A stretch of DNA of 64,000 nt, from the NCBI GenBank assembly GCA_002722135.1, contig PBKJ01000027.1, positions 75,833 to 139,832 on the forward strand. The letters are read 5' to 3'. The stretch is from Methanobacteriota archaeon. Its GTDB lineage: Archaea; Thermoplasmatota; Poseidoniia; Poseidoniales; Poseidoniaceae. The position numbers and the translations under genes are program-made. Positions 29,076 to 60,316 of the stretch are shown piece by piece; positions within the stretch are counted from its first letter, which is position 1, and every line of letters begins with the position of its first letter. A model generated the notes under the pieces. The model was not told the origin of the DNA, did not search any database, and saw only the letters and a program-made list of their open reading frames with translations.

Positions 29076-29735
29076 ATGGAGTTCTTTCTGGACACGGCCG
29101 ACGTTGACGAGATTCGAGAGATTGCCGCGTGGGGCATCCTTGACGGTGTGACCACCAACCCCTCGCTCATCAAGAAGAGCGGTCGGGACTTCCGAGAAGT
29201 CGTCCGCGAAATCGCGGGCATTTGCTCTGGGCCGATTTCAGCGGAAGTCACAGCGATGGACACCGCCGGAATGGTCGAGCAGGGCAGGGCGCTGAAGGCG
29301 GAACTCCCCGAGAACGTCATCATCAAAATTCCCTGCACGCCGGAAGGTCTGGCAGCGACCAAGATCCTGACCGAGGACGGCATCAAGACCAACGTGACGC
29401 TCATCTTCTCGGCATCACAAGCGTTGATGGCCGCAAAGGCAGGCGCGACCTACGTGTCGCCATTCATCGGTCGAATCGATGACACGGGCCATGACGGAAT
29501 GGAACTCATCGCTGAGATCATGAACACCTGGGCGAACTACGACCTGGACACAAAGGTCCTGGCTGCCTCTGTACGCCACCCAACGCACGTGCTCCAATGC
29601 ATCCAACTGGGCGCACACACGGCCACCATGCCGGCCAAGACCTTCCGCCAACTGATGAGCCACCCTCTCACGGACCGTGGTTTGGAAGGCTTCATGCGCG
29701 ACTGGGCTGAAGTTGAAGCCAAAGGCAACGCGTGA
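29076..29735 (+). CDS. Transaldolase / fructose-6-phosphate aldolase (Fsa/TalB-archaeal type)
   Basis: [15 protein letters not shown]...GVTTNPSL...IKIP (Schiff-base Lys) signature. Confidence 0.8.
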
Positions 29736-30358
29736 TTGAACGTGGGAGCCTTCATCAAGGAGGCATTCGACGCCGGACCGGTGACCGCATGACCCTGCCG
29801 GACGACCAACTCCGCCGTCTGCTCGACGGCGAGATTGACGCCGGTGAGTTGGCGGGCGACCGCGTGATGGCCAGCATCGCCGACCGCGTGTTCGGCGTCA
29901 AGGTCGACCCTGCCGTCCGGCCCGTCAAGCCTCGTGACGCGGCCGCCATGGGACAAGAATCCGGAGCACCAGCGGCCGCCCAACCCGAGATGTTGGTCGA
30001 GATCATTCCCGGTGGCGGCCCACCCCTGCCCGCCTTGGATGCACCTCCTGCAGCCGTCATCCCACCGTTGGAAACGCCCGTCGCGGTCAAGCGCCGTCGA
30101 AAGGGGCTGATCCTCATCGGAATGCTCGGAGTGGCTGCGGCCCTTGTGAACGTCTTCCTCGGACTCGGCGAATTCATGCCGACCTGCGACCCATCGGTCC
30201 ACGTCACGTGTGGGCAATCGCTCAAACTCAACTGGCTCGACGCCTACCGTACCGCTGAACACGTCGCATGGGGACCCGTTGGTGTCTGGGGCATTCCTGA
30301 CATGGTGGCGACCGGAGCGAGTGCGTTGCTCATGCTCTTCGGATTCCGGAAGCGATGA
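29732..30358 (+). CDS. Hypothetical membrane protein (2 TM), Pro-rich linker
   Basis: ORF with GTG start overlapping the fsa stop; no recognised family. An alternative ATG at ~29789 is possible. Confidence 0.3.
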
Positions 30359-31943: not shown

Positions 31944-32606
31944 ATGTGGCGTTCATGCCACCACTTCATGCGAGCCTTGCAAGCCGCTGGTCTCATCTTC
32001 GTGCTCGTCGCGGGACTTTTCCTCGGCATCACCGAACCTTGGGTGGAGGAAGCAGACCCTGCTCAAATCCAATCCACTCAGGACGTGCCAGACGAAGAGA
32101 CATCAGACCCGGAGATGTCAGACGGAGGGGTTGCGGACCCTCAAGTCGATTCAGAATCCAACGAGACCACAACCAATGAACCGGACACAGACTCAACCAC
32201 ACCGCGTTCTGAGCAATGCTTGGACAGCCATAACTCGCTTGCCATGCACATCCATCCCAGACTGGAGTTGGTGGTCAACAACCAGAGCGTTACGGTGCCC
32301 GGGGACCTCGGCATTGACACAACGGCGTGCGACCAAGCGATGCACCTCTTGCACACCCACGATGCCAGTGGCAAACTGCACATCGAAGGATACGAGTCCT
32401 TTACACCAACCGCAGATCTCATCTTCGAGATTTGGAACATCAGTTATCCGAACGATGAATCACTGCGACCGCTCTTTGATGACGCAGGCAACGTGACCGT
32501 CACGGTCAACGGGGCAGCCACCAATGCTGCATGGCATGAGATTGTGCTCAAGGACGGCGAAACACTCCGCGTCGTGCACAACACCGATTCAAACACCGAA
32601 GCGTGA
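31944..32606 (+). CDS. Hypothetical secreted/anchored acidic protein with His-rich C-terminal domain
   Basis: N-terminal hydrophobic segment, acidic Thr/Glu/Asp linker, C-terminal HIHPRLE...HLLHTHDASGKLHIEGYE region; no family recognised. Confidence 0.35.
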   Translation: MWRSCHHFMRALQAAGLIFVLVAGLFLGITEPWVEEADPAQIQSTQDVPDEETSDPEMSDGGVADPQVDSESNETTTNEPDTDSTTPRSEQCLDSHNSLAMHIHPRLELVVNNQSVTVPGDLGIDTTACDQAMHLLHTHDASGKLHIEGYESFTPTADLIFEIWNISYPNDESLRPLFDDAGNVTVTVNGAATNAAWHEIVLKDGETLRVVHNTDSNTEA

Positions 32607-32666: not shown

Positions 32667-35573
32667 GTGCAGCGTGTCTTGTTTGTGCTGGTGCTGCTCA
32701 TGGCGGCACCATGGGGGCCAAGCGTGGCGGCCGTTGAAGCACGTTCCATCACGGTTGAACTCGACATCGAGCGCCATGGCTGGTGGTCCAACGAAAGTGT
32801 GGACGCAGACTTGACCGTGACCAACGCACCCGCGGGCGACGATCTGCAGTTGACCTTGACCATGTTTGACACCAATGGCGTGGTGTTGGAAGAAGCACAA
32901 CCGCTTCCCGTTACCGCCAGTCGTCTGAACGTGCCGCTGGAGATGTCGTCCTTCTACCGAGGCGATACCTTCCACCGACTCTTGGTTCACATCCATGATT
33001 CAAGCGGTCAACTTCTGGGCCAAGCCGAGGTTGAATTCGTGATGTTTCAACACGTCCAACACCCTAACGTCGGACAACTTCTGGTGTTTGGGGATTCCTT
33101 GTCAGACATGGGCAACGCTAAGGCATCGTTCCTCAACACACCCGACGTTCCCCCGTATTGGCAAGGACGCTTCTCGAATGGAGAAGTCTGGCTCGGTGGC
33201 GTGTACGAAGCGTATGGGTTGAGCAGCAGCATCGGTTCAGGCTGGTCGAGCACAGGAGACAACCGGGCTTTCGGAGGCGCTCAAACTGGGTCCGGCTACG
33301 CCTACCTCGTCATTCCAAATGTCGGAACGCAGATCTCGAACTACCTGGCCAACGTTCAATCCACCATCCCAAGCAATGCTGTGGTGAGTCTCTGGGCTGG
33401 AGGGAACGATTTCCTCTACGGCACAGCCAACCCAGACACCATCGTTAGCAACATGGAAGCCCACCTGCGCCAATTGGCTGGAGCGGGAGCTTCCACCTTC
33501 ATCGTACCAAACCTACCACCGCTCGAAGACACACCTGAGATCCGCAGCAAAAGCGCGTCTGAACGGCAGACGGTGCGTGACGACGTCATCGATTACAACA
33601 CAAAATTGGCGACCCTCGTCGCAGATCTTCGTGCGGAACTCGGCATCACCGTCCATACCATCGATGCATGGACCATCTTTGGTGGAATCACGTCTTCACC
33701 CCAAGCCTTGGGACTGACCAACGTTCAGGACGCTGCGTGCACGGGAGGCAGCACTTTGCTTCCATTGCCCATCTGCAACAGTGGAAGTTCCATCGTCAGC
33801 AACGTCGACGAGTACGTGTTTTTTGACAAAGCGCATCCAACCCGAGTGATGCACGATTACATCGCTCAGTTTGCTCTTGAGGCCATCGGTACCCCAGATA
33901 CGGATGCGGACGGCATCGTGGACGACAGCGATGCTTGCCCATGGACACCTGAGGGTGAGTCGCCGGACGCGACAGGCTGTGCGTGGTCCCAACGAGATGA
34001 GGACCAGGACGGCGTCGCCAACGGTGAGGACCTCTGTGCAAGCACCATGGACGGGGTCGAGGTTGACGAACAGGGATGTTCTGCCGCACAGCGTGATTCC
34101 GATGACGACGGCTTGTCGGACCTGGTCGATCCGTGCCCCTTCAGCCCGAACCTCATCGATCACGACCTCGACGGTTGCGCGGATGACGAAGACACAGACG
34201 ACGACAACGACGGTCATCAGGATGCTGCGGACGCTTGTCCACGTGGCGCACTGGGGCCCCATGAGAGGGATCTCGATGCAGACGGTTGCGCCGATGCGGA
34301 GGACACGGATGAGGATGGAGACGGCTTGAGCAACGTCGATGAGGACGCCATTGGCAGCAGCAACCGCGACCAAGACAGCGACGATGACGGGTGGCTGGAC
34401 GGTGAGGATGCATTCCCCATCGACCCAACAGAATGGAGCGACACGGACCGTGACGGGTGCGGCGACAACGCTGACGAATACCCCCTGAACCCGAACGAGT
34501 GCGCCGACTCCGATGACGACGGTGTGGCCGACAACGAAGACGTGTTCCCAGATGACCCTGATGAATGGACGGACCTCGACAGCGACGGTGTCGGGGACAA
34601 CGGTGACGATTGCCCGCTTCAACCTGGCAATTCGACTGGCCCCCCGGGATGTCCCGACCGAGACGGCGACGGTTCACCGGACAAGCGCGACGCCTTCCCT
34701 GACGATGGAGGGGAATGGGCGGATTCCGATGGCGACGGATACGGTGACAACCGAGATGCGCTCCCCAACAACCCCAACGAGTGGAACGACACCGACGCCG
34801 ACGGCTTTGGCGACTTCAGCGATGCGTTTCCAATGAATCCGGATGAATGGAACGACACCGACGGCGACGGTCATGGTGACAACCGAGATGCGCTGCCCGA
34901 CGATCCGAACGAATGGAACGACAGCGACGCCGACGGATGCGGGGACAACACGGACGTGTTCCCCAACGACCCTGAGGAATGCTTGGACAGCGACGGAGAC
35001 GGTCTTGGGGATGCCGCGGACGTCTTCCCTTACGATCCAAAGGAGACCAAAGACACCGATGGTGATGGTGTAGGGGACAACGCCGATGCCTTCCCGAACA
35101 ACCCGCGTGCCCGGTACGATGCCGACGGTGACGGTGTGGCCGACGTCAACGATGCGTTTCCACGGAGTGGGCTCTTCACGACGTGGAACCAAGCCGGCTT
35201 TTCCCTTGGTCTTCTGATGCTCGTGGTCGTCACCCTCGCCATGGTCCGTCGAAGGGGTACATCAAGCGAGCCGATGAGCAAGGACGACATGCTCAGCTCG
35301 ATGCAGTTCGCCGCACCAACCCCCCACGAACCTGAGATTTTGGCTCCACCCTTGCCGACAATCCTTGATGAGGCGCAGAACGATTGGCCGACCCATCCTT
35401 CTGATGTGCCACAACACGTGATGCCGCAAGCAGTGGTCACGCCTACCGTGCACGCAACGTTGCCATCCGAAGTTGAACCTCCAAGTGTTGTCGCGGAGCC
35501 TGCGCCGTCGATGGACGACCCTTGGTCAGAGGTTCACTCCGGATGGGGGGATGAGGTCGAAGGTCAAGGCTGA
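32667..35573 (+). CDS. Large secreted SGNH/GDSL hydrolase (lipase/esterase-like) fused to ~10 thrombospondin-type-3-like Ca-binding repeats, TM anchor and Pro-rich cytoplasmic tail
   Basis: Signal peptide MQRVLFVLVLLMAAPWGPSVAAVEA, GDSLSDMGNA catalytic Ser block, GGNDF and DxxH blocks, repeats D(T/S)DxDGxGDNxDxFPxDPxEW, TM helix GFSLGLLMLVVVTLAMV followed by RRRG and a ~105-aa tail; GTG start. Confidence 0.6.
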   Translation: MQRVLFVLVLLMAAPWGPSVAAVEARSITVELDIERHGWWSNESVDADLTVTNAPAGDDLQLTLTMFDTNGVVLEEAQPLPVTASRLNVPLEMSSFYRGDTFHRLLVHIHDSSGQLLGQAEVEFVMFQHVQHPNVGQLLVFGDSLSDMGNAKASFLNTPDVPPYWQGRFSNGEVWLGGVYEAYGLSSSIGSGWSSTGDNRAFGGAQTGSGYAYLVIPNVGTQISNYLANVQSTIPSNAVVSLWAGGNDFLYGTANPDTIVSNMEAHLRQLAGAGASTFIVPNLPPLEDTPEIRSKSASERQTVRDDVIDYNTKLATLVADLRAELGITVHTIDAWTIFGGITSSPQALGLTNVQDAACTGGSTLLPLPICNSGSSIVSNVDEYVFFDKAHPTRVMHDYIAQFALEAIGTPDTDADGIVDDSDACPWTPEGESPDATGCAWSQRDEDQDGVANGEDLCASTMDGVEVDEQGCSAAQRDSDDDGLSDLVDPCPFSPNLIDHDLDGCADDEDTDDDNDGHQDAADACPRGALGPHERDLDADGCADAEDTDEDGDGLSNVDEDAIGSSNRDQDSDDDGWLDGEDAFPIDPTEWSDTDRDGCGDNADEYPLNPNECADSDDDGVADNEDVFPDDPDEWTDLDSDGVGDNGDDCPLQPGNSTGPPGCPDRDGDGSPDKRDAFPDDGGEWADSDGDGYGDNRDALPNNPNEWNDTDADGFGDFSDAFPMNPDEWNDTDGDGHGDNRDALPDDPNEWNDSDADGCGDNTDVFPNDPEECLDSDGDGLGDAADVFPYDPKETKDTDGDGVGDNADAFPNNPRARYDADGDGVADVNDAFPRSGLFTTWNQAGFSLGLLMLVVVTLAMVRRRGTSSEPMSKDDMLSSMQFAAPTPHEPEILAPPLPTILDEAQNDWPTHPSDVPQHVMPQAVVTPTVHATLPSEVEPPSVVAEPAPSMDDPWSEVHSGWGDEVEGQG
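33870..35160 (+). repeat. Array of ~69-nt degenerate tandem repeats encoding the TSP3-like DxDxDG repeats
   Basis: Recurrent gacggcgacgg(t/a)...gacaac...ttccc...gatga(a/g)tgg units; the protein-level period is 23 aa. Confidence 0.55.
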
Positions 35574-50400: not shown

Positions 50401-52697
50401 AGGAAGCCCTGCGCGTGAAGCTCATCGAGATGCTCGGCTCTGAAGGCCCACAGACCGCTGACCACCTGGAGGCGCGGTTGCCCTTCCCACGGTCGATGGT
50501 CGAGCGGACCATCCACCAACTTGAGACTCGAAACGTCATCAGCATCGGCTTCTTCACGCAAACCGAAGAGGCCGAGTTCATCCTCAAAGTCGACGAGCAC
50601 CGCATCACGGGCGGCGAAGAAGAGGTCATCGAGTACCGCTCCATCCAGAACATGATCCTCGACAAGTCGTTCACCATGTACGATGACGTCGACCAAGCCT
50701 TTGACCAGCACCTGCTCTTCCAGAAGCAGCAGGAACTGCTCTACCGGATCAACGATTTCAGGTTCAGCGATTGGAAGGACCTGCAGTTGGACCGTGACAT
50801 CGTCAACGGGCGGCTCCTGCACAACCGCCAAGGGTACACGACGCGAAGGAACCTTCCCATGCTGCTCGGACTCAAACCTGAGCCTTACATCGGTGCGATG
50901 GAGGCCGACCTGCTCGACCGCATCCTGCCCGGCGAGGAACCTCAGCGCTCCGAAATCGTGGCCATGTATCCGAAAGGCGACGAACACAAGCAACTCCAGC
51001 GTGACGTCAAGAATGGCCTCGCCAACCTCGAGCGCCAACTTTTGGTCGCGAAACAATTCGAAGAAGTTCCAGGACGTCGTCGACGTTTGTCCTTCTACCA
51101 CCGCGTCCACGAGGTCTACGACGGGTTGTCCTTCGAGGACGCTTTGTGCGAGGTCATCCGTCGCATCGGGCCCATCAAGGCCAACACGCTTCGGTTCTAC
51201 GTCAGCCGTGCCTACGAAGAATTGGTCATCGCCCTCAAGGCGCTGGAACAGGATGGACGCATCAGCCGCGTTACTACGCTGGTGCCAGAACCCGAGGATT
51301 TCTATTGCGCTCCTGAGGAAGTCGGGACCTTCCGTCGCGCTCGGCGAGAGGACCGGTCGATGCGCATCCTGACGCAATCCGACCCCTACGTCTCTCGTTT
51401 CATCTGGGAGGTCCGCGCCATGTTGGACCGCGGCTGGTACCTGCCCGTGTTCAAGGGCATCGACCCGGTTGGGAAGGTCCTGATGTTCAAGGTGAACGAC
51501 TACCTCGAAGTCAAGGACATTCAGATTCCCGCAGCTTACCTCGAGGAATTCTGCGAAGCCTTCGACGTGCTGCTCAACAACCACGCCGAACAACTGGTGG
51601 ACGTCGCGGTCCTCAGCGGCATCAACGGTCAACCGATCAACGAAGTGGAGCAGGTCTGGCGCGACGCGCTGGGGAGCATCGGGTTCAAGCTCGCCGGGGA
51701 GCGGATGATCCGAGGGGGCATCGTCGAAACCCAGCCACGGAACCTCGCCGATCGTGCCTTGTTCCACAAGCACCACCTGCACCAATCGGCACGGCTGGAG
51801 AACGAGTTCCTCGCCCTCAAGAGGATTCGAGAAGTCCGTGACGACTTCGCCCTCCGTGGACGTGCTGAGGTCTACCGCGTGGACCTGAAGAGCATGGCGA
51901 GTGCGAACCGACTGCACCAGGGCGTCAACCTCCGAGGCCACCAGTCCTGGGCCTCCTACGAGCACTTCCAGACCCTGTTGGCCATCCGGGGCATTGAACC
52001 CGATGAGGACCTTGCTGACGTGCTGGAGTTCTTCTCGACACATTCGGATCATGAGTTGTTCAAAGAACGCTATGCGCTGAGCCAATCGGAGTTCAGAAAA
52101 TTGGTTCAACCCCTCATCAGGTCCGGTCACATCGTCCAAGATTTCCGAGGAGGATTCAGGACGGTCACCGTGGATGCCTCGCTTGAACGGTCTGTTTTGC
52201 GCAAGGAGTACCTGCGCTCCCTCGTGGCCGATTTCCCCGTCATGACGATCAAGCAACTCTTGTCCTTGGCAGGCAGCCACTTCAAGCCGGAGGAGGTCAA
52301 AGCCATCCTGACGGAGTTTGAGGAAGATGAGACCCTCATCAAGGGCTTCCTGATCGATGACCTGCACGAGGTCTGTTGGGGGCGAAAGGACCTCCTCGCC
52401 GAGGCCAAGGAACTCCAACCGATGCGCGACTTCGTGCTTCCGCCCTCGGACCCCATCGCGCCGTACTTTGCTGGCACGCTCAAGGAAAAGTTCGGCTTTG
52501 GCAGCGCCTATCTGGTGTTCAAGAACGGCGAACCGGCTGCCGCCTTCAAGGCCAACACCAGAAACCGCGTCATCGAAGTCACGGACTATGAAGGGAAGGA
52601 AGACGCGTGGCGCATCGTCAAGGAATTCGCGTGGGAGCACCAGATGCCGCTCACGTCCGAGGTCAGGATTGGCGGTCGACGGTTGAGCAGTTCCTGA
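47409..52697 (+). CDS. lhr: Lhr-family large ATP-dependent DEAD/DEAH-box helicase with an ~850-aa C-terminal extension
   Basis: FTAPQKMAIPAIMNGEHLLLCSPTGSGKT (Q motif / Walker A), DELH box, ..ARAGH.., followed by WH/domain-4-like regions and a long C-terminal region without recognisable catalytic motifs; 1762 aa. Confidence 0.75.
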   Translation: MPEITYLETSDDTEALAARLSEPVRRWFLDKFPDFTAPQKMAIPAIMNGEHLLLCSPTGSGKTLTAFLTVIDDLVRKALDGSLKDQVYCIYISPIKALANDIERNLLGPLEEIKARYLPDRAKEIRVGLRTGDTSQSDRQKMLRKPPHILITTPESMAIAVGSSRFQPIVSRVKWMIIDELHSLVPTKRGVHLSLTLSFLDTLLKDPVQRIGISATMEPLDTVAEYLVASDDRESRGEDQRIMVAKISGSRELDLDILITHPRFADRSVAQTLEANVEAIADLISAHTTTLVFANTRKMTETLVQRLRPFLGELVAGHHGSMDKNIRLEVERKLKLGHLRAVVTSSSLEMGIDIGSVDLVIQVGSPGDIATALQRIGRAGHHVGGIPRARFLPSSVDDLLELAALQAAIQTGDMDRLSFPQNCLDVVAQFLIGLVINEELDIDEAYEIVVNAWSYRNFAYDDFIEVLDLLEDERRIWVDWEENTFGKRGYSRMIYYTNIGTIAPDNSYLVFNAEGSILGKLSSSFVASLRTSDVILLGGSTYRVNTIQGTRVNVSNVTGYRPTVPSWSGEARSRSAELSSSLLDLIGRCAVALRREVDPRTVLTEAYSIGRDSAEIIARHLEEHVLTTFQVPDKDRILVEQIIGGPHPTYLITTCRGRGFNTALGYFMAGLAEQASIPVIEMSFDENGLLLKTAQDVDPGAMYEAFSADNHMDVIERYIIGTQIFAKRFREVAGRSLIIPKRIGAEEISPQQFQQRADALLNRHRTMEGSILIREAKNEILYGDIDLGGLEQFLTSCREGQARIVHIRTTLPSRIGMSLYMSAFEDLMSMRTRAFLVKDIDPAILERLLGRRSLATEMTNEQISDYYANKVPVPVDADTLLALMEHGGGLDRSFGNPLYREKLSGIDHEVIRGWVEELCTAGRITKIEATGMEELDGKWFSTYMGEIHGTLGCLAANGGRDVEDLLTLHTAGVTYRMASAFSGTKVTSWTDMELGDPQEALRVKLIEMLGSEGPQTADHLEARLPFPRSMVERTIHQLETRNVISIGFFTQTEEAEFILKVDEHRITGGEEEVIEYRSIQNMILDKSFTMYDDVDQAFDQHLLFQKQQELLYRINDFRFSDWKDLQLDRDIVNGRLLHNRQGYTTRRNLPMLLGLKPEPYIGAMEADLLDRILPGEEPQRSEIVAMYPKGDEHKQLQRDVKNGLANLERQLLVAKQFEEVPGRRRRLSFYHRVHEVYDGLSFEDALCEVIRRIGPIKANTLRFYVSRAYEELVIALKALEQDGRISRVTTLVPEPEDFYCAPEEVGTFRRARREDRSMRILTQSDPYVSRFIWEVRAMLDRGWYLPVFKGIDPVGKVLMFKVNDYLEVKDIQIPAAYLEEFCEAFDVLLNNHAEQLVDVAVLSGINGQPINEVEQVWRDALGSIGFKLAGERMIRGGIVETQPRNLADRALFHKHHLHQSARLENEFLALKRIREVRDDFALRGRAEVYRVDLKSMASANRLHQGVNLRGHQSWASYEHFQTLLAIRGIEPDEDLADVLEFFSTHSDHELFKERYALSQSEFRKLVQPLIRSGHIVQDFRGGFRTVTVDASLERSVLRKEYLRSLVADFPVMTIKQLLSLAGSHFKPEEVKAILTEFEEDETLIKGFLIDDLHEVCWGRKDLLAEAKELQPMRDFVLPPSDPIAPYFAGTLKEKFGFGSAYLVFKNGEPAAAFKANTRNRVIEVTDYEGKEDAWRIVKEFAWEHQMPLTSEVRIGGRRLSSS

Positions 52698-52750
52698 AGG
52701 CCAAACCATCGCACCAACAGGTTTTGAAGACGCGGGGCCGTCTTCCCCCC

Positions 52751-55700
52751 ATGCACGACGGACGCCCCCGTGCGCTCGCCCTCGTGGCCCTCTTGGTGCT
52801 CTCCACCACCCTCGCCACCTTGAGCCCGACCGCCGGCGCGGAATCATCCTTGGACATCGAAGTGCTGGACACCAAGGTCAATCCAGCGAACAACCACACC
52901 TATCACCTGCTTTCTGCCTCGTCATGGACGGAAGCAGCGCAGGCCGCCCGTGGCCTCGAAGGCTTCCTCGTCACGGTGGACGACGAAGCAGAAAACACGT
53001 GGCTGCACGAAACGTGGGGCAACGACGGAAACGTCACGCGCCATTTGTGGACCGGCCTCAACGATGCCGCGGAAGAAGGCGTCTTTCGCTGGCATGACGG
53101 CACGCCCTACATCCACCGTCAGTGGGGCGAAGATCAACCGAGCATGACCGATGAAGAGGACTACGTGCACATCACGGGTCCAAACATGGGCTCCATCCAG
53201 CCCGGCGATTGGAACGACTTGGAGAACGACCCGCAGTACTTCCCGGTCTACGGCGTGGTGGAGCTTGGCCCCGGCGCGGATTTCGCCTTGCGCTTCGACG
53301 GTGAGGACGACCACGTCATCACGGCCGATGACACGTCCCTGCGCGCACCCTCCTCGGAGGGTGAGTTGACCATCGAAGCGAGGGTCTATCCCACAGATCT
53401 CGACGGCATCCACACCGTGGTGATGTACGGCGACTATGGATACGGTCTCTACCTCAATGACGGACGCCTGGGGTATTCCTCAGAATACAGCCTGTCCAAA
53501 AACGCCCTGAGCGAGGCCAACACCACGCTGAGCGCGGACACGTGGTCCACCGTGGCCGTCGCCGTGAACGCATCCACGGGAGGCACCTTCTTCCTGAACG
53601 GCGAGGCCATCGGCTCGTTTGACGCCACACAAGCAGAGATTCCAGCGGGTGACTTCGGCTCCAACGACTGTTACGATGCAGGCCTCGCCTGCGAGAACCT
53701 GGTGATAGGACGCCACGGCGCAGGCGCAGACCGCTACCACTTCGAAGGCATGATCGACCACGTCAGCATCAGTTCTGACGACCACCGAATCACCACAGAC
53801 GACGGTGGCATCGGCCTGGACAGCTCCGACGATCCGCTCTCCACCTGGACGTTTGGTGAAGGCGAGGGAGACCTCACCATGGACAACGCCGAGAGGAACG
53901 GCACGATTCATGGCGCGGCTTGGGTGATGCCAGATGGCTCGGTGGTGGCTCAGGCTTTGGAACTCGAAAACGGCGATGAACTCGCCATCGAGGACGTGAG
54001 CGCCGGCGACACGCTCCTCTTCTTTGCCGAACTCCCTGAATACACTCGGGACTTCAGCGTCCAAGCCTTCGCATGGTCAGCCGGCAAAGGGAAGGAAGAC
54101 GGCGATGCGGAGTTTAGCCTCTACCACGACATCGACCGCGTTCCTTCAGCGTGGTCGCACATGGATGAAGTCGAAAATTGGGGCTGGGGCGGTGTGTTCG
54201 CCTCCTACAGTTGGCCTGATGCCGGCGTACACTGGTTTGCACTGCAGGCAGACTCTGACCTTGACGAATTCAGCCTGTGGGTGGAGTGGGACGTCGCGGA
54301 AGCCCCGCCAACCTTGGAGGACATGATCGAACTCAAGCACGGCATTCCTGTCGCCAACCAAGACCTGCAAAGCCAGCGCGGGAATGAATTCGGCGACACA
54401 ATCCAGTATTACGTCAACGTCACCGAGCCGCTTGCCGATCTCGCGGTGGAAACGTACGGCGGTGACGGTAACGTCGAACTCGCCATCTCCTACGGGGGCC
54501 CACCGGACCCCTTCGGGCAATGGAGCGAGTGGGACGAGTGGGACATCATTGGAGCACCCGGTTTCCTTGGTGAGGACGATGCGGATGTCGAAGCCTACGA
54601 AGATTGGTCGATGGGGCCCGGGAACGACGAGGAGGTTCACCTCTACAACGTTGAACCCGGCACCTACTACGTGACGGCGTACACCTGGGGACGAGCCTTC
54701 GATTTCAGCATCGTCGCCGACCTGACCCCAATGCCGACCAACGGCGAGGCCTCCGACGCCATTGCCCTGACCGCAGGCGTTCCGTACGGCCCCTTCTCCG
54801 GCTACGACGGTCTCAGCCAATACTTCTCCATCGACGTGCCGGAAGGCACAGAACGGCTGGAAGTTCGCCTGGACGACGGCGTCGGAGAAGCCGACCTCCA
54901 TCTTGCCTACGCGTCCACGCCGACGGAGACGGTCTACGACCACCGGAGCACGTCGCCTGGCTCGAACGACATGGTCGCGTTCAACGACCCCACACCGGGA
55001 ACGTGGATGATTCTCGTCCACACCGAGCGCGTGTTCAGCGGCACCACCATCCTCGCGGAGTTTGCCGACCGGTACGTCTGGGATTGGGACGGTGAGCCCA
55101 TCCAGTTGTTCAATGGAGAGGCCATTGTGGGCATCGAGGCAGAAGAAGGCACGGTGTTGGAATTCTTTGGCATCCTCGAGGAACCCGCCTCACCGCTTGA
55201 GGTCACGACCTGGGGCGAAGATGGGGTCATCGAACTCGAAGGCGAAGCGGAGCCCTACGATTGGGACCTGATCTTCGAGGAAGGGCCTCGTGGACGGCAA
55301 TGGGGCGAAGCCACGTGGATCGAAGGCGACGGCGCCAATTGGTTCTGGTACGTTGACATCGCCGCAAACGGGCGTTTTGACGTGACCGTTGAGGTGGTTG
55401 AAGACCTCAGTGCACTCGGCATCATGGCGACGTGGGTTGAGGCCGATTTGCCGCCCGTGGACGACGACGATGACGTTGACAGCGACGAACCCTTTGATCC
55501 TCAAGGGTGCGAAGACCGAACGATCGAGTGGTTCAGCGAACTTGATGCCAACCGGGACGGGTTTGTCAGCCTCGATGAGCACCGGCCGCACCCCGATACG
55601 GGCACACCCGGAGAGGACCTCGACCGCAACCAAGACGAACGCCTCCAAATGGCCGAACTGGAAGCCGATTTGTGCTCCTGTGCACAAGAATTCCTCTTCA

Positions 55701-56302
55701 TTTGGGAACAAGCCGACGAAGCCGATGCCATCGCGCTCGAGGATTTGGAAACGGTGTCTTACCTGAACGAGATTGATTTGGAGGCCATGGACCGAGACGG
55801 CGACGGCGACATCGACGACCGTGAGGCTGAGCGTCACACCCTGGCCTGTTCAACGACCTACGACCCGATCGACCTCGACGGTGACGGTGTCCCCAACGAC
55901 GACGACGCGTTCCCGGAAGACCCCGACGAGAGCGAAGACTCGGACGGCGACGGCGTGGGCGACAATGCAGACCTTGTCGCGGGTGTCAACGACAGCATGG
56001 TGACCTACGGAGCCGCGGCGGCCGTCCTCGGTCTGGTCATTGTCTTGCTGCTGACCATGTTGCGCCGAGGACCCGGTGGTGCACAGCCGGTTGACCCGTG
56101 GGCGGAACTCGGGGACGAGAAGCGCATGCCAGACCTCTTCGAACCCGCAACCATGGCTCAGGAACCGTCCATGGCGTTTGATTCAGCTCCATCTTCTGCG
56201 AGCAACAACCCCGTACAGCCTGCACCTGAAGTCCCAGGCATGACCGATCTGCCGCCGCCGTTGAACGATGCGTTGCCAAGCGAACCACTCGAGTGGCGAT
56301 GA
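52751..56302 (+). CDS. Large secreted surface protein: C-type-lectin-like domain + LamG/ConA-like domain + 3 PPC (pre-peptidase C-terminal) domains + EF-hand-like Ca sites + TSP3-like repeats + TM anchor + Pro-rich cytoplasmic tail
   Basis: Signal peptide MHDGRPRALALVALLVLSTTLATLSPTAGA; CTLD-like WTGLNDAAEEGVFRWHDG...WNDLEND; LamG-like block (LRFDG...LNGEAIGSF); PPC-like blocks (YYVNVTE..., YFSIDVPEG...ADLHLAY..., ...); DANRDGFVSLDE / DRDGDGDIDD loops; DLDGDGVPNDDDAFPEDPDESEDSDGDGVGDNAD; TM AAAAVLGLVIVLLLTML + RRG + 75-aa tail. The track ORF begins at 52607 inside lhr; start moved to the signal-peptide Met. Confidence 0.6.
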   Translation: MHDGRPRALALVALLVLSTTLATLSPTAGAESSLDIEVLDTKVNPANNHTYHLLSASSWTEAAQAARGLEGFLVTVDDEAENTWLHETWGNDGNVTRHLWTGLNDAAEEGVFRWHDGTPYIHRQWGEDQPSMTDEEDYVHITGPNMGSIQPGDWNDLENDPQYFPVYGVVELGPGADFALRFDGEDDHVITADDTSLRAPSSEGELTIEARVYPTDLDGIHTVVMYGDYGYGLYLNDGRLGYSSEYSLSKNALSEANTTLSADTWSTVAVAVNASTGGTFFLNGEAIGSFDATQAEIPAGDFGSNDCYDAGLACENLVIGRHGAGADRYHFEGMIDHVSISSDDHRITTDDGGIGLDSSDDPLSTWTFGEGEGDLTMDNAERNGTIHGAAWVMPDGSVVAQALELENGDELAIEDVSAGDTLLFFAELPEYTRDFSVQAFAWSAGKGKEDGDAEFSLYHDIDRVPSAWSHMDEVENWGWGGVFASYSWPDAGVHWFALQADSDLDEFSLWVEWDVAEAPPTLEDMIELKHGIPVANQDLQSQRGNEFGDTIQYYVNVTEPLADLAVETYGGDGNVELAISYGGPPDPFGQWSEWDEWDIIGAPGFLGEDDADVEAYEDWSMGPGNDEEVHLYNVEPGTYYVTAYTWGRAFDFSIVADLTPMPTNGEASDAIALTAGVPYGPFSGYDGLSQYFSIDVPEGTERLEVRLDDGVGEADLHLAYASTPTETVYDHRSTSPGSNDMVAFNDPTPGTWMILVHTERVFSGTTILAEFADRYVWDWDGEPIQLFNGEAIVGIEAEEGTVLEFFGILEEPASPLEVTTWGEDGVIELEGEAEPYDWDLIFEEGPRGRQWGEATWIEGDGANWFWYVDIAANGRFDVTVEVVEDLSALGIMATWVEADLPPVDDDDDVDSDEPFDPQGCEDRTIEWFSELDANRDGFVSLDEHRPHPDTGTPGEDLDRNQDERLQMAELEADLCSCAQEFLFIWEQADEADAIALEDLETVSYLNEIDLEAMDRDGDGDIDDREAERHTLACSTTYDPIDLDGDGVPNDDDAFPEDPDESEDSDGDGVGDNADLVAGVNDSMVTYGAAAAVLGLVIVLLLTMLRRGPGGAQPVDPWAELGDEKRMPDLFEPATMAQEPSMAFDSAPSSASNNPVQPAPEVPGMTDLPPPLNDALPSEPLEWR

Positions 56303-56321
56303 GCGCACACCAACCGTCACG

Positions 56322-57266
56322 TCATGACGACTTCGGTTTCAAGGCGAGTTGAATGGGTCGCATCAAGCGTAGAACGTGTGCGTGAAGCTCCGGGAGCAGT
56401 CTGAACATCACGAGCGCCAGTCCGTACATGGCCAACAAAGCGACCACGCGAGCGGCGTAGGTGTGCGCGAATTCGAACATGCGGAGACCAAAGACGTCGA
56501 CTGAGCCATGGATGGCGTGCAGCCAAACGATGCCTGCGTTTCGGAAAATGTTGAGCACGTGAATCAGCGGCAGGGTGAGCAGGAGCGCGCGAACGCGGCG
56601 CTTCCATGGCATGTCCAGCACGGCGATGGCGCCGACAAAGACGATCATGGACTGCAGCGCGGTGCAGGCCAGGACGATGTTGACGCCCACAGAGGTGCCG
56701 TCAGCCCAGATGAGATCTGTTTGGATGGGGTACTCGCCGAAGGGCTGGCTCCAGAACCACACGTTGCCCTCCCACTCTTGCCAGAGCACCTGCCCCTCGG
56801 GTGTGCTGACGTAGGTTTCCCCAACGTAGACGTCACCCGCCCCCGTGAATCGGAGCATCAAGGCGGATTGCGAGGCGACGGCGACGATGGCCAGCCGACT
56901 GAGCCAGGGCACGTGATAGGTCGCAAGATAGGGCAAGCCTGCGAGCGCGACCGCCCCCTTCAGCCAGCGAAGGGCCGATGCATCACGTGCATCTTCCACC
57001 TTCCATTCCCACCACGCAAGGCCGATGGACGCCGGGAGGGCTGCACTTAGCATGACGGTCAGGACAGGGTCACGTTCCTGCCAGTAGCCGTCAGCCATCA
57101 GAAAAAAACCAACACCAACCAGCGGCCATGCGATGAGGCTGACGCGATGCAAGCTGCCCCGTTTCGACAACGAAACACCGAGGAGAACCATGCCAAAGGC
57201 AAGCAAGCCGATGGATTCCACCGAGGCGCCCGCCATGACCTGAACCCCGTTCGCGTCTGTCTTCAA
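56322..57266 (-). CDS. Archaeosortase/exosortase-family transpeptidase-like membrane protein
   Basis: 7-8 TM helices; candidate catalytic Cys (IVLACTALQ) with Arg 41 residues downstream in an NIFRNAG context, matching the Cys173/Arg214 spacing reported for ArtA; further conserved Arg residues follow. TTG start in track; internal ATG at ~57236. Confidence 0.55.
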   Translation of the reverse strand: MKTDANGVQVMAGASVESIGLLAFGMVLLGVSLSKRGSLHRVSLIAWPLVGVGFFLMADGYWQERDPVLTVMLSAALPASIGLAWWEWKVEDARDASALRWLKGAVALAGLPYLATYHVPWLSRLAIVAVASQSALMLRFTGAGDVYVGETYVSTPEGQVLWQEWEGNVWFWSQPFGEYPIQTDLIWADGTSVGVNIVLACTALQSMIVFVGAIAVLDMPWKRRVRALLLTLPLIHVLNIFRNAGIVWLHAIHGSVDVFGLRMFEFAHTYAARVVALLAMYGLALVMFRLLPELHAHVLRLMRPIQLALKPKSS

Positions 57267-57336
57267 CCCTCCTCGTTGAAATCCATCGGAGCAGGGCAGT
57301 GGCCAACCTCAAGGGCCGGTGTGGAGAAGGTGTGGC

Positions 57337-57948
57337 ATGGACGGGCCCATTGCGCACGCGCTGCGCCCGTTTCCCGGTGGTCGCGAGGATGCTCCAATCG
57401 CGTTTCTCGACCGCGATGGCGTGCTGAACATGAGCCTCGATGGGTACGTGAACCACCCGCACGAATTGGCGCTCCTTCCCGGAACTGAACGAGCGATGCG
57501 TGTGCTCAGGGACGAAGGCTTCCTTCTGTGCGTTGTCACCAATCAGTCCGCTGTCGGACGAGGGGTGTGGGACGACGAACGGTTGCACCAGATCCATGAC
57601 CGGTTCGATGCGATGCTCGCCGCTGCAGGAGCGCAACCCGACCTCATCTTGGCCTGCCCTCACGTGCCTTGGGCCGGTTGCGGATGCCGCAAGCCGAGGA
57701 CTGGCATGCTGAGCCTTGGTGCATCGCTGCTCCGCTCAGAGCACGGCTTTGGTGTGCTTCGGCAACGCATGAACAACGTCGAGGCCCCCCCGAACAATGA
57801 CGATGTCATGGTCGGTGATCGCGGCAGCGACATCAGAGCCGGCTTGGCCTTCGGTGCACGTGCGTTCCACGCTGTGCGCGACCTTGGACTCGATTCGTTG
57901 CTGCCTCGTTTGTTGGATTGGGACGACCCCGGGGACAGGGTGAGATGA
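57337..57948 (+). CDS. HAD-IIIA phosphatase, GmhB (D,D-heptose 1,7-bisphosphate phosphatase)/HisB-N-like
   Basis: AFLDRDGVLN (motif I), VVTNQS (motif II), CPHVPWAGCGCRKPRTGML Zn-binding insert plus motif III, GDRGSD (motif IV). Confidence 0.6.
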   Translation: MDGPIAHALRPFPGGREDAPIAFLDRDGVLNMSLDGYVNHPHELALLPGTERAMRVLRDEGFLLCVVTNQSAVGRGVWDDERLHQIHDRFDAMLAAAGAQPDLILACPHVPWAGCGCRKPRTGMLSLGASLLRSEHGFGVLRQRMNNVEAPPNNDDVMVGDRGSDIRAGLAFGARAFHAVRDLGLDSLLPRLLDWDDPGDRVR

Positions 57949-59202: not shown

Positions 59203-59445
59203 ATGGCCGATGAAACCGGCGTTGACGTCGTGACCGTGCTTGCGGGACTTGTGTTCCTTGGATTGCTCGCCTTCGTGGTGTGGAAGGCCCGACAGAACCG
59301 AGCCGCTGCCTTGGCCAAGACCGGCCCGAAGGTGGCCGGAGAGGACCCGTTGGAAGGCGGGGCTCGACGACCAGAAGCCTTCGATGAACCGACGGAAGAA
59401 GACCTCGAAATGATGGGCGACTTGCTCAATGAGGACGAGGATTAG
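59203..59445 (+). CDS. Small single-TM protein with acidic C-terminal tail
   Basis: 80 aa; TM VVTVLAGLVFLGLLAFVVW then ...EEDLEMMGDLLNEDED. Confidence 0.3.
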   Translation: MADETGVDVVTVLAGLVFLGLLAFVVWKARQNRAAALAKTGPKVAGEDPLEGGARRPEAFDEPTEEDLEMMGDLLNEDED

Positions 59446-60023: not shown

Positions 60024-60100
60024 GTGCCGCGTTGGTTGACGAAGGAGAAAGACGCTTCCGGTGTCGCAACGCTCATGATGTGGCAGCGGGAGACCGGAAC

Positions 60101-60316
60101 ATGGCCGAGGAAACCAAGAAGGCAGAACGCATCCCCCGTCGCCCTGCTCCGGAATTCACAGAGGTCGGCTCCTTTAGCGAGGCCATCAAGACGCACGGCC
60201 TCATCGGTACCGCGGTCAACGACAAGAACCAGTACGGCCCCGTGGGCATGATGGTGTTGCTCTTCATCGTGGCCGCCATCACCTCCCTCGGACTTCTGCT
60301 GATTCGCTCGTCCTGA
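60101..60316 (+). CDS. Small tail-anchored membrane protein (hypothetical)
   Basis: 71 aa from an internal ATG of track ORF 59837..60316; basic N-terminus and C-terminal TM MMVLLFIVAAITSLGLLLI. Confidence 0.3.
   Translation: MAEETKKAERIPRRPAPEFTEVGSFSEAIKTHGLIGTAVNDKNQYGPVGMMVLLFIVAAITSLGLLLIRSS

Follow-up and report, generated by a model that had tools for sequence, protein, structure and literature searches.

A Marine Group II archaeosortase A encoded beside a large lectin protein that lacks a PGF-CTERM signal

Archaeosortase A (ArtA) cuts the C-terminal anchor from surface proteins and puts a lipid in its place, and Marine Group II (MGII) are the most abundant archaea of the surface ocean. 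In the 64-kb stretch of MGII DNA analysed here (the window), a gene on the minus strand at 56322..57266 converges on the gene of a 1231-aa lectin protein. The initial annotation had read it as an archaeosortase-family membrane protein, with no canonical PGF-CTERM substrate in the window. The locus therefore raises the question of which class of archaeosortase is encoded and whether the neighbouring lectin protein, or some other protein, is its substrate.

The longest open reading frame of the gene starts at a TTG codon and encodes 314 aa. Since most orthologues start at the ATG at 57236 (Met11), this codon is the probable true start and would give a product of 304 aa. The coding frame has a GC3 of 0.76, like the other genes of the window (~60% GC). 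The artA stop codon (56322-56324) and the lectin TGA (56300-56302) are convergent and closely spaced, as first described, and the spacer between them (56303..56321) measures 19 nt instead of the 20 nt first given.

We compared the predicted protein with archaeosortase and exosortase HMMs, as the initial annotation had proposed, and the ArtA-specific model was passed over its full length. The protein gave a single match to TIGR04125 (archaeosortase A, NCBIfam) of 109.5 bits (E 1.9e-31; curated cut-off 75 bits), which joined residues 23-301 to positions 5-259 of the 271 in the model. The exosortase/archaeosortase signature TIGR04178 was matched at 61.9 bits (cut-off 23) over all of its positions (1-97 of 97), and this domain, which holds the catalytic residues, spans residues 195-293 (56388..56684, minus strand). 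All other class-specific models scored far under their cut-offs, with XrtH at 39.1 bits (cut-off 86), heimdallarchaeosortase at 37.4 (130), XrtX at 31.2 (170), pacearchaeosortase at 20.9 (80), ArtB at 14.7 (150) and ArtE at 14.6 (95), and the N-terminal half of the protein was matched by the ArtA model alone among the class models. The assignment to the archaeosortase family was thus upheld, while the accompanying proposal of a non-A class with an atypical signal was not.

A search of 5.8 billion proteins returned hundreds of orthologues, several of which are already named "archaeosortase A (PGF-CTERM-specific)" (JGI) or "archaeosortase A" (NCBI), and copies 88-97% identical were found on Candidatus Poseidoniales / Poseidoniaceae contigs. 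The tblastn search of plasmid records gave 3 matches only, each of them a PGAP-annotated artA on a haloarchaeal megaplasmid. The gene is an ordinary one, a standard member of the known ArtA family in MGII (Ca. Poseidoniales, Poseidoniaceae), and its orthologues already carry this annotation.

The single Cys of the window ArtA is Cys201 (codon 56664..56666, minus strand; motif LACTALQS), the predicted catalytic nucleophile, and Arg242 (codon 56541..56543, minus strand; motif LNIFRN) lies 41 residues past it. Alignment of the MGII (Poseidoniales) orthologues showed that Cys201, Arg242, His236, Asn243, His268 and Arg273 were invariant (38/38). A further alignment combined the window ArtA with 7 diverse MGII orthologues and 3 annotated haloarchaeal artA products. 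In this set Cys201 (LACT..S) and Arg242 (LN..RN) were again invariant, and they aligned to C174 and R215 of the 307-aa Salinirubellus ArtA, where the spacing is also +41. The candidate Cys...Arg pair with ArtA-like spacing, noted earlier in the window protein only, was in this way confirmed by both the 38 orthologues and the three haloarchaeal proteins.

The critical residues of Haloferax volcanii ArtA are reported to be Cys173, Arg214 and Arg253 (PMC9263693), and MGII ArtA matches two of the three, the Cys and the Arg of the pair. Salinirubellus R254 corresponds to H. volcanii Arg253 by numbering only, made without the HVO_0915 sequence, and at this position MGII ArtA has Thr269, directly after the invariant His268 (codon 56463..56465, minus strand), a candidate third active-site residue. 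The His268 position is also a His in two of the three haloarchaeal ArtA proteins; the third reads D-R, and it is its R254 that takes the Arg253 position by numbering.

Hydropathy showed five strong segments, and the AlphaFold model (pLDDT 77.6, pTM 0.69) contained eight long helices, with residues 146-196 (56679..56831, minus strand) forming a beta-hairpin loop. By both measures the window ArtA is a polytopic integral membrane protein. The loop, which is predicted to be extracytoplasmic and precedes the Cys helix, holds ~20 extra Trp-rich residues (WQEWEGNVWFW...GEYPIQT) inserted relative to haloarchaeal ArtA, and its residues W162, G167, W170 and F171 were invariant among the 38 MGII orthologues. 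A PDB sequence search with the window ArtA returned nothing relevant and a Foldseek search of its AlphaFold model against the PDB gave zero matches at E <= 0.001, so the exosortase fold is not among the solved structures.

MGII ArtA thus resembles H. volcanii ArtA (HVO_0915, TIGR04125) in being polytopic, in its full-length HMM match, in its LAC-T...S and LN..RN motifs and in the 41 residues between Cys and Arg, and it resembles the archaeosortase A system (TIGR04125) as a whole in that PGF-CTERM proteins exist in its own archaeal family. However, its identity to haloarchaeal ArtA is no more than about 22-25%, it has the additional Trp-rich loop residues, it lacks a ~14-residue insertion that haloarchaeal ArtA carries past the Arg motif, and His268-Thr269 takes the place of the Asp-Arg (Arg253) of H. 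volcanii-type sequences. Bacterial exosortases (EpsH/XrtA, PEP-CTERM), ArtB-E and the heimdall- and pace-archaeosortases have in common with the window ArtA the ~97-residue TIGR04178 domain with its Cys and Arg, but differ from it in their class-specific models, which remain far below cut-off, and in the N-terminal half, which matches ArtA only.

The neighbouring surface protein (52607..56302, plus strand) matched the Pfam families Lectin_C, Laminin_G_3, PPC (twice) and EF-hand, the last in EF-hand/TSP3-like repeats. The GTG start of its longest frame (52607..52750) overlaps the end of the gene for a 1762-aa Lhr helicase by 91 nt, and Met49 (ATG 52751) directly precedes the signal peptide; for both reasons the ATG is the likely start. 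Near the other end a TM helix (56006-56062, residues 1134-1152) is followed by RR (1153-1154) and a 77-aa cytoplasmic tail, the whole spanning 56006..56299 on the plus strand, and the TM region reads ...NDSMVTYGAAAAVLGLVIVLLLTMLRRGPGG.

We examined this region for a sorting signal. The PGF motif was absent from the lectin protein and from all orthologues compared. Neither TIGR04126 nor PF18204 matched the lectin protein, whether the whole protein or the isolated TM region was searched, and the same TM-region procedure does detect true PGF tails; the protein thus fits neither of these cognate signal models. The earlier remark that its TM and Arg cluster does not lie at the extreme C-terminus was correct, as 77 residues follow the RR and no tripartite signal is present at the very end. 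Among the orthologues the segment before the TM helix varied (NDSMVTYGAAAA, NDILWLVGAG, NDLIYGSIG and NDIIYSTAA, with a varying part such as TYGAAAA, ILWLVGAG or IIYSTAA), and in most of them a single Arg followed the helix. The cytoplasmic tails were 77-135 aa long (77 in the window, 85-135 in the orthologues), and in most lineages the tail end was conserved as PDPSLMGM.L.G.ET.EYP..SG..W.R. Given these conserved tails, the lectin protein, like its orthologues, appears to be a simple membrane protein of type I.

The two genes belong to a longer conserved block, which runs in the order Lhr helicase, lectin protein, ArtA, HAD-IIIA phosphatase, TiaS, four small or unknown ORFs, adenylosuccinate lyase (ADSL), diphthine-ammonia ligase (Dph6) and proteasome alpha (PsmA), and in relatives extends into SBDS, exosome subunits and L37ae. 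This order was kept in 16/16 Poseidoniales loci examined, which ranged from 40 to 62% GC and from 47 to 97% in ArtA identity, and a lectin orthologue lay near ArtA in every MGII locus sampled. Since the ~20-kb housekeeping block is conserved throughout, the adjacency of ArtA and the lectin protein carries little functional information. The initial annotation had offered coincidence as one account of this adjacency, and that part of it which denies a functional meaning is the better reading; the arrangement itself is not random, being conserved across the Poseidoniales together with the whole block.

The HAD-IIIA phosphatase gene (GmhB/histidinol-phosphatase-like; 57319..57948, plus strand) is divergent from artA and always adjoins it in MGII, and its product scored 78 bits on TIGR01662 (cut-off 44.6) and 92 bits on TIGR01656 (cut-off 84.15). 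In three Poseidoniales lineages with an otherwise identical block, an Oxidored_FMN gene (Old Yellow Enzyme-type) lies between artA and the lectin gene (L014:10997-12085, L015:11115-12182 and L016:6826-7965). Pfam and NCBIfam scans showed no lipid-synthesis (PssA/PssD-like) genes around artA, and no tRNA genes or Rfam matches were found within the 64-kb window. The block also encodes two small conserved membrane proteins on the plus strand. One (59203..59445, 80 aa) has a TM helix at its N-terminus and an acidic tail whose end, EEDLEMMGDLLNEDED, is similar to that of the tail in a 972-aa surface protein on locus L023, DDDLELMDDLEDL. The other (60077..60316, 79 aa) is tail-anchored, with GPVG, a TM helix and RSS.

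To find substrates other than the lectin protein, we scanned the ORF tails of the 64-kb window. None ended in PGF, a TM helix and a basic C-terminus and no candidate tail matched TIGR04126, in agreement with the initial annotation. Two ORFs were considered as CTERM substrates and rejected. The product of 29732..30358 has two TM helices, and the 79-aa product of 60077..60316 (...GPVGMMVLL...LIRSS) is small and tail-anchored; both lacked a signal peptide and matched no CTERM model. Genomes with ArtA carry between 1 and 52 PGF-CTERM proteins each, and these are dispersed (PMC6098224). As a control, we scanned the 50-kb surroundings of a canonical artA, that of Natronorubrum bangense, and they held no PGF-CTERM protein. 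With substrates dispersed and at times as few as one per genome, and with the N. bangense region likewise empty, their absence from 64 kb is expected.

We searched a wider sample of 80 metagenome loci (739 kb), gathered via a YHYH protein family that was chosen because its genomic contexts vary. These Poseidoniales contigs encoded two unrelated secreted proteins with canonical PGF-CTERM tails that passed curated thresholds, both with an N-terminal signal peptide. One is a 715-aa PhoX-type alkaline phosphatase (L075:4498-6642, minus strand; also on L073 and L076) that ends ...ENTPGFGTILSLIAALGAVCVVSRQQRF; against TIGR04126 (cut-off 24.5) the entire protein scored 24.6 bits and its isolated tail 30.8 bits. 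The other is a 905-aa protein on L069 that ends ...SIIPGFGVLLGLSALLLAGLASRRKHEN and scored 20.5 bits on PF18204 (gathering score 18.8). The YHYH gene product of L069 was 99.7% identical to a Candidatus Poseidoniaceae archaeon protein (NCBI), and those of L073, L075 and L076 were about 81% identical to another Candidatus Poseidoniaceae protein. The contigs with PGF-CTERM proteins have 48-50% GC and belong to other Poseidoniaceae lineages than the ~60% GC window. Ordinary ArtA substrates therefore exist in the family. The initial annotation had held that ordinary PGF-CTERM substrates elsewhere in the genome would explain the enzyme, and the two proteins bear this out at the level of the family.

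The YHYH family itself was also examined (L021:1241-3355, plus strand; entries P0241-P0360). Nearly all members of this secreted MGII family had a signal peptide and a tripartite-like tail at the extreme C-terminus. The tails consisted of a Gly/Pro-rich linker (GGQS.E), a short motif that differs by clade (AFDMS, VFDWT, SFDPM, LSNAW or FSPY), a TM helix and, at the very end, RxRR. They contained no PGF and did not match TIGR04126; weak matches were found to the MYXO-, Heimdall- and Loki-CTERM models. Such a tail may be nothing more than an anchor, or it may be a sorting signal not yet described.

Several explanations of the enzyme and its neighbour were weighed. We regard it as probable that the gene encodes a functional MGII ArtA whose substrates are PGF-CTERM proteins elsewhere in the genome, and that conserved synteny accounts for the position next to it of the lectin protein, a normal type I protein. 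That the enzyme is instead a non-A archaeosortase (ArtB-ArtG or an undescribed class) with a cognate signal of its own is extremely improbable. Its ArtA score is just moderately above the cut-off and PF09721 was absent from the Pfam scan output, yet the match to TIGR04125 runs end to end, the next best class models (XrtH and heimdallarchaeosortase) fell far short, and the sole tblastn matches in the plasmid collection were genes annotated artA. Cleavage of the lectin protein by ArtA at an atypical internal, non-PGF site by the TM helix, with release of the cytoplasmic tail, is also very doubtful. The neighbourhood of the two genes is kept in every Poseidoniales locus sampled, the window protein carries a TM helix and RR, and H. 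volcanii ArtA can process an internal tripartite signal in HVO_0405 (PMC9263693; PMC6098224), a protein which, like the lectin protein and a 968-aa GDSL/TSP3 protein of the window, has a long C-terminal extension behind a TM helix and Arg residues. However, HVO_0405, the sole published internal ArtA signal, is a strain-specific gene fusion that still retains a genuine PGF, and permutation of PGF abolishes processing in H. volcanii (PMC6098224). The MGII lectin and GDSL proteins have no conserved PGF, and their tails are conserved family features; PGF is missing in all lectin orthologues. The juxtamembrane sequence of the lectin proteins is not conserved, mostly one Arg follows the TM helix, and a tail of such length with a conserved terminal motif implies a role while attached. 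Moreover, synteny extends over all of the 20-kb block, and the Oxidored_FMN gene parts the two genes in L014-L016.

A further explanation is that the specificity of MGII ArtA has drifted or broadened, so that tails without PGF, for example those of the YHYH family, are processed in addition to PGF tails or in their place. The signal peptide and extreme C-terminal tripartite-like tail of this family, and the divergence of MGII ArtA with its extra extracytoplasmic loop, are consistent with this. Drift of specificity as such could have occurred, given the modest score of 109.5 bits for the family and the MGII-specific loop insertion. However, the YHYH clades carry different motifs ahead of the TM helix, motifs that were seen in that single protein family, and an HMM of the YHYH tail matched no unrelated protein in about 0.4 Mb of MGII sequence, as would be expected of a normal membrane anchor peculiar to one family. 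Since canonical PGF-CTERM proteins occur in this archaeal family, ArtA can be explained without a new signal. We therefore consider processing of such tails unlikely. As the ArtA-lectin neighbourhood is kept throughout the order, a functional link retains some plausibility, and a more extended proposal takes this conservation to reflect function and lets MGII ArtA, with its Trp-rich loop, read non-PGF signals as well, either the TM and Arg region of the lectin protein or the YHYH tails; this we consider quite unlikely. If it were true, non-PGF processing would make a new archaeosortase signal class.

Under the favoured reading, that of a functional ArtA with PGF-CTERM substrates elsewhere, secreted proteins that carry a signal peptide at the N-terminus and, at the C-terminus, a signal of PGF, TM helix and basic residues would be exported and held transiently by the C-terminal helix. 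ArtA, acting as a polytopic membrane cysteine transpeptidase, would then cut and remove the TM segment, with Cys201 as the nucleophile and Arg242 in a supporting role, and the cleaved proteins would stay lipid-anchored, by analogy with H. volcanii ArtA. The tail of the lectin protein, an ordinary type I membrane protein in this scheme, would function in the cytoplasm. The terminal motif shared by the lectin orthologues points to a partner in the cytoplasm that they have in common. From the haloarchaeal work we infer catalytic activity and lipid anchoring for the MGII enzyme, and PGF-CTERM proteins would be expected in the window's own genome; the PGF-CTERM evidence stands at the level of the family, and from the window's own genome 64 kb were read.

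In the literature searched, we found no paper that treated archaeosortase or PGF-CTERM together with Marine Group II or Poseidoniales. The present results document an ArtA/PGF-CTERM system, predicted to anchor proteins by a lipid, in these uncultured and abundant ocean archaea, with the secreted PhoX alkaline phosphatase among its predicted substrates. The PGF-CTERM tail of PhoX implies a lipid-anchored, cell-surface phosphate-scavenging enzyme as a prediction for Marine Group II, and this bears on how MGII keep such enzymes at the cell surface. Beyond its correct annotation, the gene itself carries little weight, as near-identical proteins are already publicly named archaeosortase A.

Further observations concern the large surface proteins and one of the relatives. 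The second large surface protein of the window is the 968-aa GDSL lipase with TSP3 repeats (32667..35573), which matches the NCBI MAG protein of locus tag CMB41_08130 with 100% identity. It contains an 'AGF' followed by a TM helix and RRR (at 35193), 105 residues before its end. This was rejected as a PGF-like signal and is ascribed to chance, because among 120 database entries AGF was confined to P0121, which is the protein itself, and P0122, the orthologue closest to it. Directly upstream of this gene, a 220-aa product (31944..32606, plus strand) is homologous to the N-terminal domain of a 704-aa YHYH protein that takes the same position in L021; the copy in the window has neither the YHYH domain nor the C-terminal anchor. 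Unrelated large MGII surface proteins had a common architecture of a TM helix, R/RRG and a long, acidic, Pro-rich cytoplasmic tail (window 56063..56299 and 35250..35570; the lectin orthologues of L010, L012 and L014-L016; L023:12483-15401), often with an acidic-Trp motif ~10 residues past the TM helix. Among the relatives, an 83-kb contig (L002, CAXRAI010000015.1) recorded under the flavobacterial name 'MAG: Salinimicrobium sp.' carried the Poseidoniales block with ArtA 92% and Lhr 97% identical, and this contig is probably mis-binned or its MAG mislabelled.
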